Below, piece after piece: positions 6,004 to 10,540 of a DNA stretch of 15,441 bases (the stretch's first letter is position 1; the number at the start of each line of letters is the position of its first letter). The notes beneath the pieces are model-generated. The model saw only the letters and a list, made by a program, of their open reading frames with translations. It made no database searches and was not told the origin of the DNA. The position numbers and the translations under genes were made by a program. Source of the stretch: a virus. The stretch lies in the UHGV virus genome UHGV-0099063; one strand, 5' to 3'.

Positions 6004-6273
6004 TCATTGCTTCATCTCCCTTTCCATTTCATCAATGTCAACGTCATCAGGAAGATGGGAGCAATACGCCGCTATACCATGATGATTTATCTCATACCCT
6101 TTGAACGTTACCATCTGGCGCGTAATCTCAACTTCGTTCAGGAATCCGTCATCGCATAACTGCCTGGCTATTTTCGATTTGGTCTGGATTATTGGTAGTG
6201 CCTGTTCTTTCAAAGCGCATGATATTTGTGCATCCCATGCCTTTTCGAGAATGGCTAATTGTTTTTTATTCAT
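6004..6273 (-). CDS. hypothetical phage protein, 89 aa, downstream of the helicase
   Basis: ATG 6273-6271 overlaps the helicase stop codon (TGATG); same strand and operon as the replication genes. No family recognised. Confidence 0.6.
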   Translation of the reverse strand: MNKKQLAILEKAWDAQISCALKEQALPIIQTKSKIARQLCDDGFLNEVEITRQMVTFKGYEINHHGIAAYCSHLPDDVDIDEMEREMKQ

Positions 6274-7709
6274 CAGAATCCTCCTTTCTTCTTGGACTGC
6301 GGTTCCTCGCGTTCACGTCGGCGCATTTCAGCAGACTGTTGGTCTGTGTCATAAATAGCGCCATTTGCCTGAATGCAATACACCGTGCCGGTATTGCCAT
6401 GACGATTGAGGCGAAGGATTAGTTCGGTTTCACCAGGAGGAACGCTGTCATCAAAAGCACCTTCACGATGGATCCCCACCCAATAATCGCAATCCTGTTC
6501 AATCTGCCCTGTATCTCGTGAGTCACTTGGTAATGGGCGTTTATTGGTTCGGCTTTCCAGTGCGCGGTTAAGCTGTGTCAGAAGCACAACAACGCAATCA
6601 AGCTCTTTGGCAAGGTTCTTCAGTCCTTTGGTGATCATGCCGTAAGCAAGGTCGTTGCGATCGGCCTTTTCAGCGGTCATTAGTGTCAGGTAATCGACCA
6701 GAATCATGCCAACACATCCTTTTTCTCGCTTGATTCGACGGCTTTCGCTGACGATTTGAGCCAGAGATAATCCCGGCGTGTCGTCGATGTAAAGCAGGTC
6801 GATTTCACTCAAGCGATTGGCTGTTTCGATCGCCCTGTTGAAGTCACCATCGTAATCACCCTGATAGCCGTCATCAGCGTCATTTGTCGCCGGAAGGTAA
6901 AAAATATTCGGGTTAACACCTGACTTCTGTCCTACCAGTTTTTCCAGTATCTGGTCACCGGGCATTTCAAGGCTGAACATCAGAGCGGGCTTTTTCTCAT
7001 GCACTGCGCAGTTGATTGCCATCTGGCTGTATAGCGTCGTTTTCCCCATCTTAGGGCGAGCGCCAATGACAAACAGAGAGCCTTTCACCAGACCTTTCGG
7101 TGACAGCATCCTGTCCAGCGATGGGATCCCTGTGCTCATTCCCCGTTGTTCGCCTGATGGGTCAAATCGCTTCTCAAGGTCGCTAACCCAGTCTTCCATG
7201 ACCTCGCCAAATGAGCGAAGGCCGCGACGCGATCCGGTTTTTGCATGGTCTGTCAGTTGCGTGAAAATCGCCTGAATAGCTTCGTACTTCTGCGTCGCAG
7301 TCATTCCGTTGCGGGAATAGAGCAATTCCGTCGCTTCAGTCATGCGGTTGATGGCGTAGCGTTCCATTGCGGTTTCGCGAACCTGCATTGCATAGGCAAC
7401 GATGTTTGCGGCGCTCGGCGTGTTCTTTGCGATCTCAGCGATATAAGCAAAACCGCCAACAGACGCCGTTAACGATTTACGCTCCAGTTCATCGAAAAGC
7501 GTCAGGCCATCTACTGGCTTTTGCTCCCGGTGCATTCTGGTTATTTCTTCGAAAAGGATTTTGTGTGGTCGGCTGTAAAATGAATCAGGCTTCAGCATCG
7601 CCAGAACTTTCTGGACGCGCTCACTGCTGTCATCATCCAGAAGCAATCCACCAATCACCGCCTGCTCTGCCTCGATGCTATGGGGCGGCGCATAAAAATT
7701 ATCGGTCAT
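6273..7709 (-). CDS. replicative DNA helicase, DnaB family (P22 gene 12-like)
   Basis: N-terminal DnaB-type helical domain (SIEAEQAVIGGLLLDDD), Walker A GARPKMGKTTL, and RecA-like core motifs. Preferred start is ATG 7709-7707 (GAGGGTG upstream), overlapping the end of the O-like gene. Confidence 0.9.
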   Translation of the reverse strand: MTDNFYAPPHSIEAEQAVIGGLLLDDDSSERVQKVLAMLKPDSFYSRPHKILFEEITRMHREQKPVDGLTLFDELERKSLTASVGGFAYIAEIAKNTPSAANIVAYAMQVRETAMERYAINRMTEATELLYSRNGMTATQKYEAIQAIFTQLTDHAKTGSRRGLRSFGEVMEDWVSDLEKRFDPSGEQRGMSTGIPSLDRMLSPKGLVKGSLFVIGARPKMGKTTLYSQMAINCAVHEKKPALMFSLEMPGDQILEKLVGQKSGVNPNIFYLPATNDADDGYQGDYDGDFNRAIETANRLSEIDLLYIDDTPGLSLAQIVSESRRIKREKGCVGMILVDYLTLMTAEKADRNDLAYGMITKGLKNLAKELDCVVVLLTQLNRALESRTNKRPLPSDSRDTGQIEQDCDYWVGIHREGAFDDSVPPGETELILRLNRHGNTGTVYCIQANGAIYDTDQQSAEMRRREREEPQSKKKGGF

Positions 7710-8589
7710 CGTGTTCACCCTCACGAACTTTCAGGTAGGTATTATCGTTAAGCAGGAAATCAAATCCCTTTTTGTGCCAGACGGTTCCTCGCTGATGGTT
7801 TGGGCGCTCTTCGAACATCCATCGGCAATTTTCGCCTACGTATCTCAAATAATTTCTCCAGTCCTGCATCGTGAACCCATGCCCGTCAAGCTGGCGGGTT
7901 ATCACTCCGGCTTTGCGCCAGAACGTTCGGATCTGGTTTTTACGCTTGTCATTCAGTGCGCGGATTCTTGGCGCTTCAGGAAGGATTTCGTGGTAAGCAT
8001 CGACAACATCCTGACAGCTAACGGAAGGTTTTTTCTTGTCAGACTTTTTGTCTGCTGTGGCACTCTCTAATACGTCAGTATTAGAGATATTATTTATATT
8101 ATTGTTTATGGACAACCGTTGGACAACCGTTGGACAATCTCCGCTGAGAGCCTCGCCATTACTGGTGTTTGCGTTGGACAACCGTTGGACAACCGTTGGA
8201 CAATTTTTTGCCTGAAAATCGTCATATTTAACGATTGTAAACAGGCTAAATTTCTTCCCCATCGAGCAAATATTAAGCATCCCTTTCGACTCAAAAGTCC
8301 GTAATAAGCTCCGAACTTTGTTGTCGGGGATGAATGTTTCTCTGACCAGCGACGGGCGTCCAGTTATCATCTGACCGCGATCAACAGTTATCGGCCCGAT
8401 ATCCGTATTGACGACAGTAGATTCGTGATTAGCCTTGAGGATTAAGTGAAGCCAAAGATGTACTGCCTGAGAGTCCTTATAGAGCCTGCTGTCCATAAAC
8501 TGGCGGTGTATATAGGCATACCCCATACTGGATGCCTCCTGATGTTGTACAGGGTTATGCCTGTAATCAGCTAACTTAACGACGCCCAT
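7699..8589 (-). CDS. replication initiation protein (lambda O-like) containing the ori iterons
   Basis: 296 aa ORF immediately upstream of the helicase. Its coding sequence carries two clusters of direct repeats that translate to repeated PTVVQRLS peptides, as the lambda O gene does around ori. Start 8589 (AGGAG upstream) or internal ATG 8526. Confidence 0.8.
   Translation of the reverse strand: MGVVKLADYRHNPVQHQEASSMGYAYIHRQFMDSRLYKDSQAVHLWLHLILKANHESTVVNTDIGPITVDRGQMITGRPSLVRETFIPDNKVRSLLRTFESKGMLNICSMGKKFSLFTIVKYDDFQAKNCPTVVQRLSNANTSNGEALSGDCPTVVQRLSINNNINNISNTDVLESATADKKSDKKKPSVSCQDVVDAYHEILPEAPRIRALNDKRKNQIRTFWRKAGVITRQLDGHGFTMQDWRNYLRYVGENCRWMFEERPNHQRGTVWHKKGFDFLLNDNTYLKVREGEHDDR
8110..8203. 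repeat. origin of replication: 11-bp iterons GGACAACCGTT in two clusters, next to an AT-rich tract
   Basis: Direct repeats at 8110-8120 and 8121-8131 with a partial copy at 8132-8137, then 8176-8186 and 8187-8197 with a partial copy at 8198-8203. An AT-rich stretch at about 8060-8105 lies downstream in the direction of O transcription. Confidence 0.7.
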
Positions 8590-8737
8590 GTTTCACTCCT
8601 GCTTTGGCTAGTCTGTAAACACCAACAAGGCGCTCTGCGAACGCCCTGTTATTTGCTGCGGCTACCACTAATCCCTCAGGTGAATCAGGGTGTCGAATCT
8701 CTTCTTTTTCCTGGTATTTCTTACGACGTTTTGTCAT
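8576..8737 (-). CDS. hypothetical small basic protein, 53 aa, between cII and the O-like gene
   Basis: ATG 8737-8735 preceded by AGGAG at 6-nt spacing; its stop overlaps the O-like start. No family recognised. Confidence 0.45.
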   Translation of the reverse strand: MTKRRKKYQEKEEIRHPDSPEGLVVAAANNRAFAERLVGVYRLAKAGVKHGRR

Positions 8738-8771
8738 AATTACTCCTGTGGATTGATCCAGTCTTTCTACA

Positions 8772-9050
8772 TCAGGCCTCAAAACTGTTGCCGCAGTCTT
8801 GAGGCTTTTCTTTTGTCAGCACCATGGCTACTTTCTTTGCCAGCTCCGCTAATTCCTCGTCTTCAACACCCCACTCCAGCACAGCCAGAAGCATGGCCAT
8901 CTTTGGGATAAAGCTGTCTTTCCATCGCGAAATTTGCGATTCATTGATCCCTAATGCATCAGCAACCTTTCGCTGACCACGTACAGCAATTCGATTTAGG
9001 ATGTTGCTTGTAATTGCATTCGCTTTCTTGCGAGTACTTGTAAGTTGCAT
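8772..9050 (-). CDS. cII: CII-like transcriptional activator
   Basis: From ATG 9050-9048: ...GINESQISRWKDSFIPKMAMLLAVLEWGVEDEELAELAKKVAMVLT, matching the recalled lambda CII core (SQISRWKRDWIPKFSMLLAVLEWGV). AAGGAA 9 nt upstream. The upstream extension in the ORF track would run through nutR. Confidence 0.8.
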   Translation of the reverse strand: MQLTSTRKKANAITSNILNRIAVRGQRKVADALGINESQISRWKDSFIPKMAMLLAVLEWGVEDEELAELAKKVAMVLTKEKPQDCGNSFEA

Positions 9051-9108
9051 ATGTAAGTATTTCCTTAACAAATAAGAAGTTATGCGCACCAGCTGATGCG
9101 CGTTGTAT

Positions 9109-9152
9109 TCCCGCATTTCGGCGGGAATGAGGACCATGACTGTTAAAGAGCG
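9109..9152 (-). promoter_or_regulatory. nutR: boxA plus boxB hairpin
   Basis: Minus strand reads CGCTCTTTAACA (boxA, plus 9141-9152), then 14 nt, then hairpin TCCCGCCGAAATGCGGGA (boxB, plus 9109-9126); located between the cro stop and the cII start. The boxB is identical to the one in nutL. Confidence 0.65.
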
Positions 9153-9159
9153 GTGTTAC

Positions 9160-9384
9160 TTATGCTGCCTGATTCGGTTTTGGAAACAGGTGTGGCAAAT
9201 CGGGGCGAATTTCGTAAGCCTTGATCTGCCCTCCAGTGGCGTTAACGATGGCGGTAACTTTCTCTGGAGAGACCAACCCGCCTTTCAGCCATTTGTGTAC
9301 TGCTGGCTGCGTTACACCACACTTGTCGGCAAGGCGCTTTTGGCTACCGACAATTTTCAAGGCTCGTTGAATTACTAAATTCAT
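9160..9384 (-). CDS. cro: Cro-like repressor (YdaS/Cro-type HTH)
   Basis: From ATG 9384-9382 (GAGG 8 nt upstream): HTH segment QKRLADKCGVTQPAVHKWLKGG. Divergent from cI across the operator region and followed by nutR. Confidence 0.8.
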   Translation of the reverse strand: MNLVIQRALKIVGSQKRLADKCGVTQPAVHKWLKGGLVSPEKVTAIVNATGGQIKAYEIRPDLPHLFPKPNQAA

Positions 9385-9407
9385 GAGCATACCTCTTGTG
9401 GTCATTA

Positions 9408-9484
9408 CTTATAACCAAAGATAACTCAAGTTATAAAAAATAGCAATAACCTTTGTTATTTTACTTTGGATAACCGTAGTTATA
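9408..9484. promoter_or_regulatory. right operator region OR: three 14-bp palindromes ATAAC-N4-GTTAT
   Basis: ATAACtcaaGTTAT (9421-9434), ATAACctttGTTAT (9446-9459), ATAACcgtaGTTAT (9470-9483), spaced about 25 bp apart between the divergent cro and cI starts, plus an extra half-site at 9411-9416. Confidence 0.65.
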
Positions 9485-9495
9485 GATTTGTGAGT

Positions 9496-10203
9496 ATGAA
9501 AACATTCGCAGAAAGACTAAATGCAGCCATGAGCTCAGCAGGGGTATCACAATCACAGCTTGCTGACATGGTTGGAATATCTCAGCCAGCCATACAGAAG
9601 ATGTCGTCCGGTAAAACAAACGGATCTCGCAAGATGGTTGAATTAGCCAATGCTTTAAAAGTGCGTCCTGAATGGCTTAGTTCTGGTATTGGTGAAATGA
9701 GGGATGGTGCACATGAAGAACCATCCAATGTCCGTGAGTCATCTTTAAAAGCTGTGGTATGGGAAGACATTAAAAGAAACGATGACGAGTTTGTTGCGTT
9801 GCCTCTTCTTAACGTTTCGCTTTCAGCTGGAAGCGGTAGCTGCGAGCTAGAGGAATCATCGGAGTTCTCTTTGGTTTTCAGAAAGCACTATCTGAAAAAG
9901 ATGGGAGTATCAGAAAGATCAGCCAAGCTAGTTAGGGTTGTAGGGCAAAGCATGGAACCAACGCTTCACGATGGCGATGTTGTTGGTGTTAACACGCAAG
10001 ATACCACAATCAGAGATGGTAAAACCTACGCTATTTGCCAGTCTGATTTGTTACGAGTAAAAACATTAATCGCCACCCCTACATCGGTGATAATCAGATC
10101 AATAAATCGCGAAGAGTACCCGGATGAAGTAATGGATAGAGATGAATTTCATGAAACCGTAAGGATTATTGGCAGAGTATTCTGGTCGTCTCATAGTTGG
10201 TAA
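9496..10203 (+). CDS. cI: CI-type prophage repressor (N-terminal HTH, C-terminal S24 LexA-like autopeptidase)
   Basis: HTH SQSQLADMVGISQPAIQKM; candidate Ala-Gly cleavage site in LSAGSG; catalytic Ser in GQSMEP and a downstream Lys in LLRVKTL. ATG 9496 lies 12 nt after the third operator with no clear SD, compatible with a leaderless pRM-type transcript. Confidence 0.9.
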   Translation: MKTFAERLNAAMSSAGVSQSQLADMVGISQPAIQKMSSGKTNGSRKMVELANALKVRPEWLSSGIGEMRDGAHEEPSNVRESSLKAVVWEDIKRNDDEFVALPLLNVSLSAGSGSCELEESSEFSLVFRKHYLKKMGVSERSAKLVRVVGQSMEPTLHDGDVVGVNTQDTTIRDGKTYAICQSDLLRVKTLIATPTSVIIRSINREEYPDEVMDRDEFHETVRIIGRVFWSSHSW

Positions 10204-10243: not shown

Positions 10244-10540
10244 ATGGAATTTCTGATAGTTTTTGTTGTTGTTTTGGTCATCATTCTTTTTGTTTTGCTA
10301 AGCATTAGCAAAAAGCTATCTCAAATGATTGAACATAGCTCTAATCGCGCAAAAGAAGAAGAGCATCTAATTGATATAAAAGAGATTCTCTCTGATATAA
10401 AAATCACATTAGATGAAATAAAATACACAACAGATCTAATTGAACAGTATAAAATACCAACCCCAAACGAGAGAAAAGCAATAGATCAATATCGTATTGA
10501 CTTAGAAATCGACGAAATGCTAAGCAAAAGAAAAGACTAA
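10244..10540 (+). CDS. small membrane-anchored protein co-transcribed with cI (rex/sie-position gene), function unknown
   Basis: 98 aa; N-terminal hydrophobic helix EFLIVFVVVLVIILFVLLSI, then a charged, probably helical domain. GGAGGG 4-5 nt before the ATG; starts 40 nt after the cI stop; markedly AT-rich relative to flanks; followed by a strong terminator. Confidence 0.65.
   Translation: MEFLIVFVVVLVIILFVLLSISKKLSQMIEHSSNRAKEEEHLIDIKEILSDIKITLDEIKYTTDLIEQYKIPTPNERKAIDQYRIDLEIDEMLSKRKD

Follow-up and report, generated by a model that had tools for sequence, protein, structure and literature searches.

A cluster of short repeats lies within the reading frame of an O-like replication initiator in the virus genome UHGV-0099063 (the whole stretch of 15,441 nucleotides analysed here is referred to as the window), which raises the question of whether the region 8060–8203 is an origin of replication and, if so, of what type. 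A previous reading of the letters without database searches (the sequence-only reading) had described four full and two partial copies of one repeat in two clusters about 36 bp apart, and this description is accurate: the + strand carries exact copies of GGACAACCGTT at 8110, 8121, 8176 and 8187 (n = 4, with no exact copy expected by chance in 200 shuffles), a partial copy GGACAAT follows each pair (at 8132 and 8198) and the gap separating the clusters is 36 bp. All copies fall within the minus-strand ORF 7699–8589 (296 aa), as had been proposed, and the repeated peptide PTVVQRLS is recovered in the translation as CPTVVQRLSN and CPTVVQRLSI. Comparison with relatives indicates that the array is made up of six sites and not of four plus two partial ones: TGGACAA is found at 8109, 8120, 8131, 8175, 8186 and 8197 in a strict 11-bp register, with an offset of exactly 66 bp (6 × 11) from triplet to triplet, and the whole window holds 9 copies of this motif against 2.1 expected. 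On the coding strand, the unit reads TTGTCCAAC in five sites and a degenerate TTGTCCATA in the one adjoining the AT-rich tract. The promoter-proximal triplet (8173–8203, minus strand) thus consists of three GTTGGACAA units as read on the + strand, spaced by 11 bp and with equivalents in 26/26 sequences compared, and the AT-proximal triplet (8107–8137, minus strand) of two GTTGGACAA units and a degenerate TATGGACAA. The 30-nt blocks 8109–8138 and 8175–8204 are identical, and the spacer between the clusters (8138–8172, minus strand) is variable in sequence and tolerates amino acid changes, its length holding the triplets 66 bp apart. No other repeat arrays were found within the window. A search for DnaA boxes at the origin returned a single match with one mismatch (TTATGGACA at 8106), which overlaps the last repeat and is not kept in the other iteron types; this candidate was rejected, and DnaA-box matches across the window were not enriched (22 vs 15.5 expected).

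The AT-rich tract that had been placed next to the repeats is indeed present: a candidate DNA-unwinding element of 21 bp spans 8088–8108, with a GC content of 0.225 over 8080–8119 and of 0.225–0.275 over 8060–8119, and it is found at the same place in all relatives and also in lambda and P22. Beyond this tract lies a perfect palindrome, TCTCTAATAC-TGAC-GTATTAGAGA on the coding strand (8064–8087), with 10-bp arms (8064–8073 and 8078–8087) and a 4-nt loop. The palindrome was absent from the sequence-only reading, though it falls within the region which that reading covered.

Rather than being new, the feature has been recorded before as a putative origin. The initiator gene exhibits 98–99% DNA identity to the O genes of HK106, mEp234, IME10, HK75 and HK629 as well as to Sf6 gene 43, and the rep_origin annotated in Shigella phage Sf6 (AF547987, 2911–3006 of the locus) corresponds exactly to 8109–8204 of the window, with 98.8% identity over the gene. 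The label in the Sf6 record reads 'putative; repeat region reminiscent of the phage lambda origin; similar to phage HK620', and a rep_origin is also placed on the equivalent repeats in gene O of HK620 (AF335538) and in gene 18 of Salmonella phage L (MW013502). The origins in these three records are all labelled putative, and the AT-rich tract and the palindrome are annotated in none of them. For phage L, 'six imprecise 11-bp repeats' have been described as the likely origin, and the genetics of phage L and P22 place the origin within the replication-gene region; P22 gp18 is of a different type, with four roughly 20-bp repeats, and is 25% identical to phage L gp18 (PMC8022706). The window displays every feature of the Sf6/HK620/phage L type: near-identity to an annotated rep_origin, two 11-bp triplets 66 bp apart, an AT-rich tract, a palindrome and a PHROG 345 gene followed by the gene for a DnaB-type helicase. 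The origin DNA is present in 371 of 5,426 complete E. coli genomes (about 7%), where it is nearly always chromosomal, whilst the PLSDB plasmids gave none but one partial 70-nt match; the element is accordingly not a plasmid replicon.

The gene that carries the array (7699–8589, minus strand) matches PHROG 345 'replication initiation O-like' (E = 1.5e-84), and its 296-aa product reached no Pfam threshold, gave no PF09681 match and matched no NCBIfam family. Structure prediction divides the protein into three parts: an N-terminal winged-helix domain (residues ~22–127; 8209–8526, minus strand; AF2 pLDDT about 90) that would be the iteron-binding module, an interdomain linker predicted to be disordered (codons ~129–185; 8035–8205, minus strand; AF2 pLDDT about 30) and a C-terminal helical domain (residues ~190–290; 7720–8022, minus strand; AF2 pLDDT about 90) that would recruit the helicase. 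Proteins from a second protein search, which were largely 'partial', were used solely to deepen the alignment for structure prediction. The model of the N-domain retrieved the winged-helix proteins CodY, TubR, GlxR/CRP and MarR in Foldseek with probabilities of 0.9–1.0 and weak E-values (0.04–0.17), so that the domain is predicted to adopt a winged-helix DNA-binding fold; searching the PDB by sequence with the N-domain profile returned nothing significant. At the family level, the N-domain matched 'DnaD-like helicase loader' PHROG families (1.9e-22 to 2.5e-09), and PF09681 (Phage_rep_org_N) gave weak sub-threshold matches in 6 of 41 family members (best 1.2e-4; CobraSix E = 0.22). These weak scores suggest a remote kinship with the 'replisome organiser'/DnaD-like initiators of Gram-positive phages (PF09681). 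Among these initiators, G38P of SPP1 also binds repeats inside its own gene.

The origin DNA makes up the first 48 codons of the linker (129–176, nt 8204–8064), and the fact that this part of the protein is a disordered linker under little protein-level constraint is what allows an origin to lie within the gene: as in lambda, it is located where protein-level constraint on the gene is weakest. The gene for a phage DnaB-type replicative helicase (6273–7724, minus strand; Pfam DnaB_C 3e-60, DnaB 3.5e-31) overlaps the end of the initiator gene, and a small PHROG 1331 gene (P22 orf48/HK97 gp53 type) lies upstream, followed further upstream by the oop promoter/5' element (8730–8762, as defined in PMC3349717), cII (8772–9137), a cro-like gene and a LexA-type repressor. 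The order cII, oop, orf48-like gene, O-like gene and DnaB-type helicase is the classical lambdoid replication layout, and the window overall is that of a mosaic lambdoid phage or prophage, with its best partial matches to HK629, HK542, mEp506 and HK022.

As the repeats are translated, they could in principle be a by-product of selection on the protein, in which the peptide CPTVVQRLS is maintained twice as a flexible or interaction-prone linker. Such an origin of the repeats would agree with the 66-bp duplication encoding a 22-aa repeat and with the variants with one, two or three copies all staying in frame. The public initiator proteins are of 274, 296 and 318 aa, that is, they differ by steps of one 22-aa (66-bp) block and carry one, two or three triplets. 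However, 11 is not a multiple of 3 and the three units of a triplet are hence read in three different frames: the 11-bp period is out of frame and invisible in the protein, so that a peptide repeat cannot explain it, and only the 66-bp duplication is visible as a repeated peptide. The linker is moreover predicted to be disordered, and relatives keep the same 11-bp/66-bp geometry with quite different peptides (VPADYQQITT, CPADVQPVS). Selection at the protein level also cannot produce the suppression of synonymous change that is seen here: amongst codons with identical amino acids, synonymous differences in the origin (codons 129–176) as compared to the rest of the gene amounted to 0/43 vs 82/197 in the related locus L011 (p = 2e-9), 4/34 vs 91/174 in L105, 3/33 vs 61/154 in L012 and 1/39 vs 55/182 in phage L. 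We thus regard an explanation through the peptide as very improbable. With respect to copy number, 80 loci of type A have six recognisable sites, with three sites in 1 locus, nine in 1 and five in 2; six sites therefore appear to be the favoured state, although the natural one- and three-triplet variants indicate that a requirement for six is not absolute. These copy-number variants fit unequal recombination between the 66-bp repeats.

The comparison of the window with 25 further loci (26 sequences in total, drawn from annotated phages, GTDB genomes and viral contigs) revealed that the architecture is invariant: all 26 exhibit 3 + 3 units of 11 bp, the exact 66-bp offset, the AT-rich tract and a perfect palindrome of 9–10 bp. 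What differs is the core of the iteron, which is TGTCCAAC in the window, Sf6 and phage L, TTACCAGC in HK620, TGTCCAGC in CobraSix, TGCCAACA in a Klebsiella phage and TGCCAWCA in Erwinia Eho59. Phage L shares the TGTCCAACG core with the window and varies in the bases of the spacer, whilst HK620 combines the same 3 + 3/66-bp layout and the same palindrome with the differing core TTACCAGC. The core tracks the N-domain of the initiator: N-domain identity is 72–100% between sequences with the same core and 42–65% between those with different cores, ranges that do not overlap, whereas the corresponding ranges for the C-domain (15–100% and 8–98%) overlap completely. Two natural chimeras make this especially clear. 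HK620 has a C-domain that is 98% identical to that of the window, together with an N-domain of 50% identity and different repeats; the Dryocola locus L023 carries TGTCCAAC repeats and an N-domain that is 79% identical to that of the window, joined to a lambda-O-like C-domain and followed by a lambda P loader (PF06992, 4.9e-65) in place of a helicase. The type of the C-domain goes with the downstream partner, the window type with a DnaB-type helicase and the lambda-O-like type with the lambda P loader. The tracking of core and N-domain, together with these chimeras, suggests that the N-domain and the repeats behave as a single cassette, with the caveat that the association could partly reflect linkage rather than co-selection, since the two are physically adjacent. 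The proposal that the iteron sequence sets replicon specificity is consistent with these data, as the core follows the N-domain and not the C-domain. In more distant homologues (N-domain identity 28–41%), repeats of the CCA[AG]C type with an 11-bp period directly follow the N-domain in 3 of 4 sampled loci, with no repeats found in the fourth (L109); one-turn tandem sites hence seem to be characteristic of this N-domain family.

The joint of the cassette falls in the AT-rich/palindrome/linker region, and this raises the possibility that the segment serves chiefly as a recombination joint at which halves of the gene are exchanged, and is kept for the shuffling of modules and not for the firing of replication. 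The mosaic boundary itself speaks for this: downstream of the palindrome, HK620 and the window share about 98% identity, whereas upstream of it they diverge, and the C-domain swap of L023 is located at the same place. Joints at a domain boundary are to be expected in any case, because functional chimeras survive there, and a joint leaves both the six phased sites that track the N-domain and the compensatory changes in the palindrome unexplained. We consider it highly doubtful that this is the main function of the segment, and a role as recombination joint is in any event compatible with one as an origin. The invariant layout, the tracking of core and N-domain, the synonymous suppression and the location in the linker together support, on comparative grounds, a function at the level of DNA.

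The palindrome lies 42–53 bp past the start of the second triplet in the 26 sequences, with the loop T[AG]AC in all versions but one. As single-stranded DNA, its hairpin has a predicted energy of about -7 to -10 kcal/mol (z about -3.8 to -4). Across 10 distinct relatives with 8 sequence versions, 97% of the cells are paired and 9 of the 10 pairs are changed on both sides, a result that was approached by no shuffle or slid register. An element acting in RNA, either an antisense (+ strand) intrinsic terminator or a stem-loop in the mRNA, could also preserve pairing, and there are indications in this direction: on the + strand, TATTATTTAT follows the palindrome stem and gives a weak terminator-like score, and the phage L record contains predicted terminators at the place of the palindrome. 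However, the stem has just 3 G-C pairs and its T-run is interrupted, terminator-like matches are at the level of shuffles (2 vs 2.0), no Rfam family was matched in a scan of 7600–9500 (E <= 0.1) and the lambda and P22 origins have palindromes in the same place. Furthermore, there is one G-U among 97 paired cells, and such nearly exclusive Watson-Crick pairing is the signature of a palindrome in double-stranded DNA and not of an RNA helix. We therefore judge an RNA-level role of the palindrome unlikely. Its sequence does not track the iteron type and follows the C-domain type inconsistently, a pattern that speaks for a structural role rather than for a partner recognising a specific sequence. 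A tentative reading, which we hold as possible rather than probable, is that the palindrome is a structural DNA part of the origin and no sequence-specific protein site: once the DNA melts, it would fold into a hairpin or cruciform, which would either stabilise the open complex or mark the site of helicase loading. If this is true, a feature of lambdoid origins that has long gone without an assigned role could be accounted for, as lambda (12+4+12) and P22 have counterparts in the same place. In addition, structured origin DNA might then be what Lamassu-like defence systems sense at phage origins, as the Lamassu defence system has been found enriched at the active lambda origin (PMC12663957).

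The sequence-only reading had further claimed that the locus mirrors the ori-in-O arrangement of lambda. This is borne out for the architecture, with mid-gene repeats, AT-rich tract and palindrome, but neither for homology of the N-domain nor for the geometry of the iterons. Both systems place the origin midway along the gene of the initiator, with repeats, AT-rich tract and 4-nt-loop palindrome following one another in the direction of transcription; both initiators are modular, origin binding being assigned to the N-terminal part and the recruitment of helicase or loader to the C-terminal part, and the gene context in lambda is likewise cII, oop, O and P. In contrast, lambda exhibits four iterons of roughly 19 bp with an internal dyad, spaced by 20/24/23 bp, where the window has six direct repeats of 11 bp that abut in two triplets; lambda relies on the P loader and host DnaB, where the module of the window encodes its own DnaB-type helicase; the AT-rich tract is roughly 40 bp in lambda vs 21 bp in the window; and the lambda palindrome (12+4+12, 92% complementary, 42 bp past the last iteron) compares with 10+4+10 in the window. 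The O-some, the AT-rich tract and a minimal requirement of two iterons have been described for lambda (PMC7466680). Even at E <= 1, PF04492 (Phage_rep_O) was matched neither by the protein of the window nor by any of five relatives, as compared to 5.7e-36 for lambda O. Homology of the N-domain to lambda O was also rejected by profile comparison: hhalign with the N-domain profile gave a probability of 0.1%, and a 96.8% match to lambda O was due solely to the lambda-O-like C-domain of an Erwinia sequence in the alignment. With no detectable N-domain homology to lambda O, the mechanism of lambda is carried over by analogy: the element resembles lambda ori in its arrangement and does not belong to the lambda O family by homology of the DNA-binding module. 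In case of P22 (NC_002371), the ori is again located within the initiator gene (gene 18), which is followed by the DnaB-type helicase gene 12, and iterons, AT-rich tract and a short G+C-rich palindrome come in that order; the repeats differ, with four dyad-containing units of roughly 20 bp at the lambda-like spacing of 20/24/23 bp. Outside the phages, a winged-helix initiator on direct repeats beside an AT-rich unwinding element is the arrangement of iteron plasmid origins of the RepA/pi type, although plasmid iterons are usually 17–22 bp and located outside the rep gene, and 11-bp head-to-tail spacing is a known winged-helix binding mode, for example in PhoB boxes. The likeness of the window to iteron plasmids and PhoB boxes is one of layout.

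The grounds for reading the region as an origin are its anatomy, its conservation, the covariation of core and N-domain, the synonymous constraint and the layout of the domains, and from these we infer binding, unwinding, helicase recruitment and firing. The winged-helix N-domain of the initiator would bind the six 11-bp sites (core TTGTCCAAC on the coding strand) head-to-tail, placing the two triplets roughly on one face of the helix through the 11-bp spacing and the 66-bp offset. The resulting nucleoprotein complex would bend or wrap the DNA and destabilise the adjacent 21-bp AT-rich tract, leading to melting, and the C-terminal domain would then recruit the phage's own DnaB-type helicase. 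For the AT-rich palindrome beyond the unwinding tract, a role in the DNA itself is probable, as a hairpin, a cruciform or the boundary of the melted region, and, in a more speculative step, it may be extruded as a hairpin that stabilises or delimits the bubble. The same order of iterons, AT-rich tract and palindrome in the experimentally defined lambda and P22 origins supports the origin reading. The repeats might instead be protein-binding sites for regulation only, through autorepression, a transcriptional roadblock or copy control by handcuffing, with the true origin located elsewhere. Plasmid iterons serve both initiation and control, and weak promoter-like matches were obtained at the iteron core, which is similar to a -35 hexamer. 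For this type of origin, the searchable literature yielded no experiment that demonstrates binding, unwinding or autonomous replication. Yet the promoter-like matches are no commoner than in shuffles (4 vs 2.9), for which reason promoters in the repeats were rejected; the sites abut an AT-rich tract and a palindrome in the order of the lambda origin; the window offers no second repeat array; and the phage L/P22 genetics cited above place the origin in the replication-gene region. A purely regulatory function of the sites accordingly appears to us quite improbable. The interpretation as an origin has strong comparative support, and we conclude that the region 8060–8203 is very probably the theta-replication origin of a lambdoid phage or prophage with a replication module of the Sf6/HK620/phage L type.

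Taken by itself, the element in the window adds little, being another copy of a replication module that is found in about 7% of complete E. coli genomes. The comparison, however, defines an origin type, characterised by six phased sites of 11 bp (core of the CCA[AG]C type), the fixed 66-bp register, the AT-rich tract and the covarying palindrome. Modest value is added by the findings that the palindrome covaries, that the iteron core is tied to the N-domain and that natural chimeras exist. Five natural specificity classes are available, along with chimeras that pair one origin-recognition cassette with either a DnaB-type helicase or the lambda P loader, and these lend themselves to studies of the recognition of tandem one-turn sites by a winged-helix initiator. 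They also allow the role of the palindrome in lambdoid origins to be tested, and could aid in predicting the compatibility of prophage replicons, including those of Stx phages with the HK620-type variant.

The iterons of the initiator gene vary in number by whole triplets: natural initiators come in several lengths, separated by exactly one 22-aa/66-bp block (database entries P0002, 318 aa, and P0037/P0041, 274 aa; variant arrays at loci L081 2387-2541 and L083 2387-2409), and this block variation results in one, two or three iteron triplets, with the two-triplet form by far the most frequent among the loci compared. Many of the initiator entries P0121-P0167 are labelled "partial" (130-220 aa) and end near the origin repeats, which suggests that short-read assemblies are often interrupted at the 66-bp repeats of this gene. 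In P22 gene 18 (L112 2837-2925) and lambda (L009 435-521) the four iterons have equal start-to-start spacing (20, 24 and 23 bp) despite unlike sequences. The degenerate last repeat of the window yields TTATGGACA at 8106-8114, one mismatch from the DnaA-box consensus; this site is kept within TGTCCAAC-type loci and missing from other iteron types, and DnaA-box-like sites show no enrichment across the window.

Adjoining the AT-rich tract lies a perfect 10+4+10 palindrome (window 8064-8087), equivalents of which are present in the compared loci L003-L007, L012, L014, L015, L023 and L105. Eight distinct palindrome sequences occur among these relatives, each perfectly complementary: nine of the ten pairs show double changes, and G-U occurs just once. 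Palindromes are found at the equivalent relative position in lambda (L009 563-590) and P22 (L112 ~2970-2985).

Beyond the initiator gene, the minus strand at window 8730-8762 matches exactly the 33-bp oop promoter/5' element conserved among lambdoid phages (sequence from PMC3349717); this site is flanked by cII and a small orf48-like gene (8576-8782, PHROG 1331). A 21-bp unit, TGAAATAAAAAACACAACAGA, is called by Tandem Repeats Finder as present twice, with 77% matches, at 10393-10435, downstream of the repressor gene.

Pectobacterium phage ZF40 gp14 (L008) has only the C-domain in common with the window initiator, its N-domain being of the unrelated HTH_36/DnaD_N type; the gp14 gene contains neither the 11-bp triplets nor the palindrome, but two 44-nt repeats (L008 688-797), likewise exactly 66 bp apart and each with an internal dyad CTGTGC...GCACAG. 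In the natural chimeras from Dryocola sp. BD626 (L023 2001-3580), Erwinia phage Eho59 (L007) and loci L025-L027, the window-family N-domain is joined to a lambda-O-like C-domain, and the downstream gene encodes a lambda P loader (PF06992) rather than a DnaB-type helicase; the Dryocola locus also retains TGTCCAAC repeats. In the case of HK620 gene O (L004), the C-terminal half is ~98% identical to window 7699-8589, whereas the N-domain is 50% identical and the repeats are not alike, which places the mosaic joint between the repeats and the palindrome.
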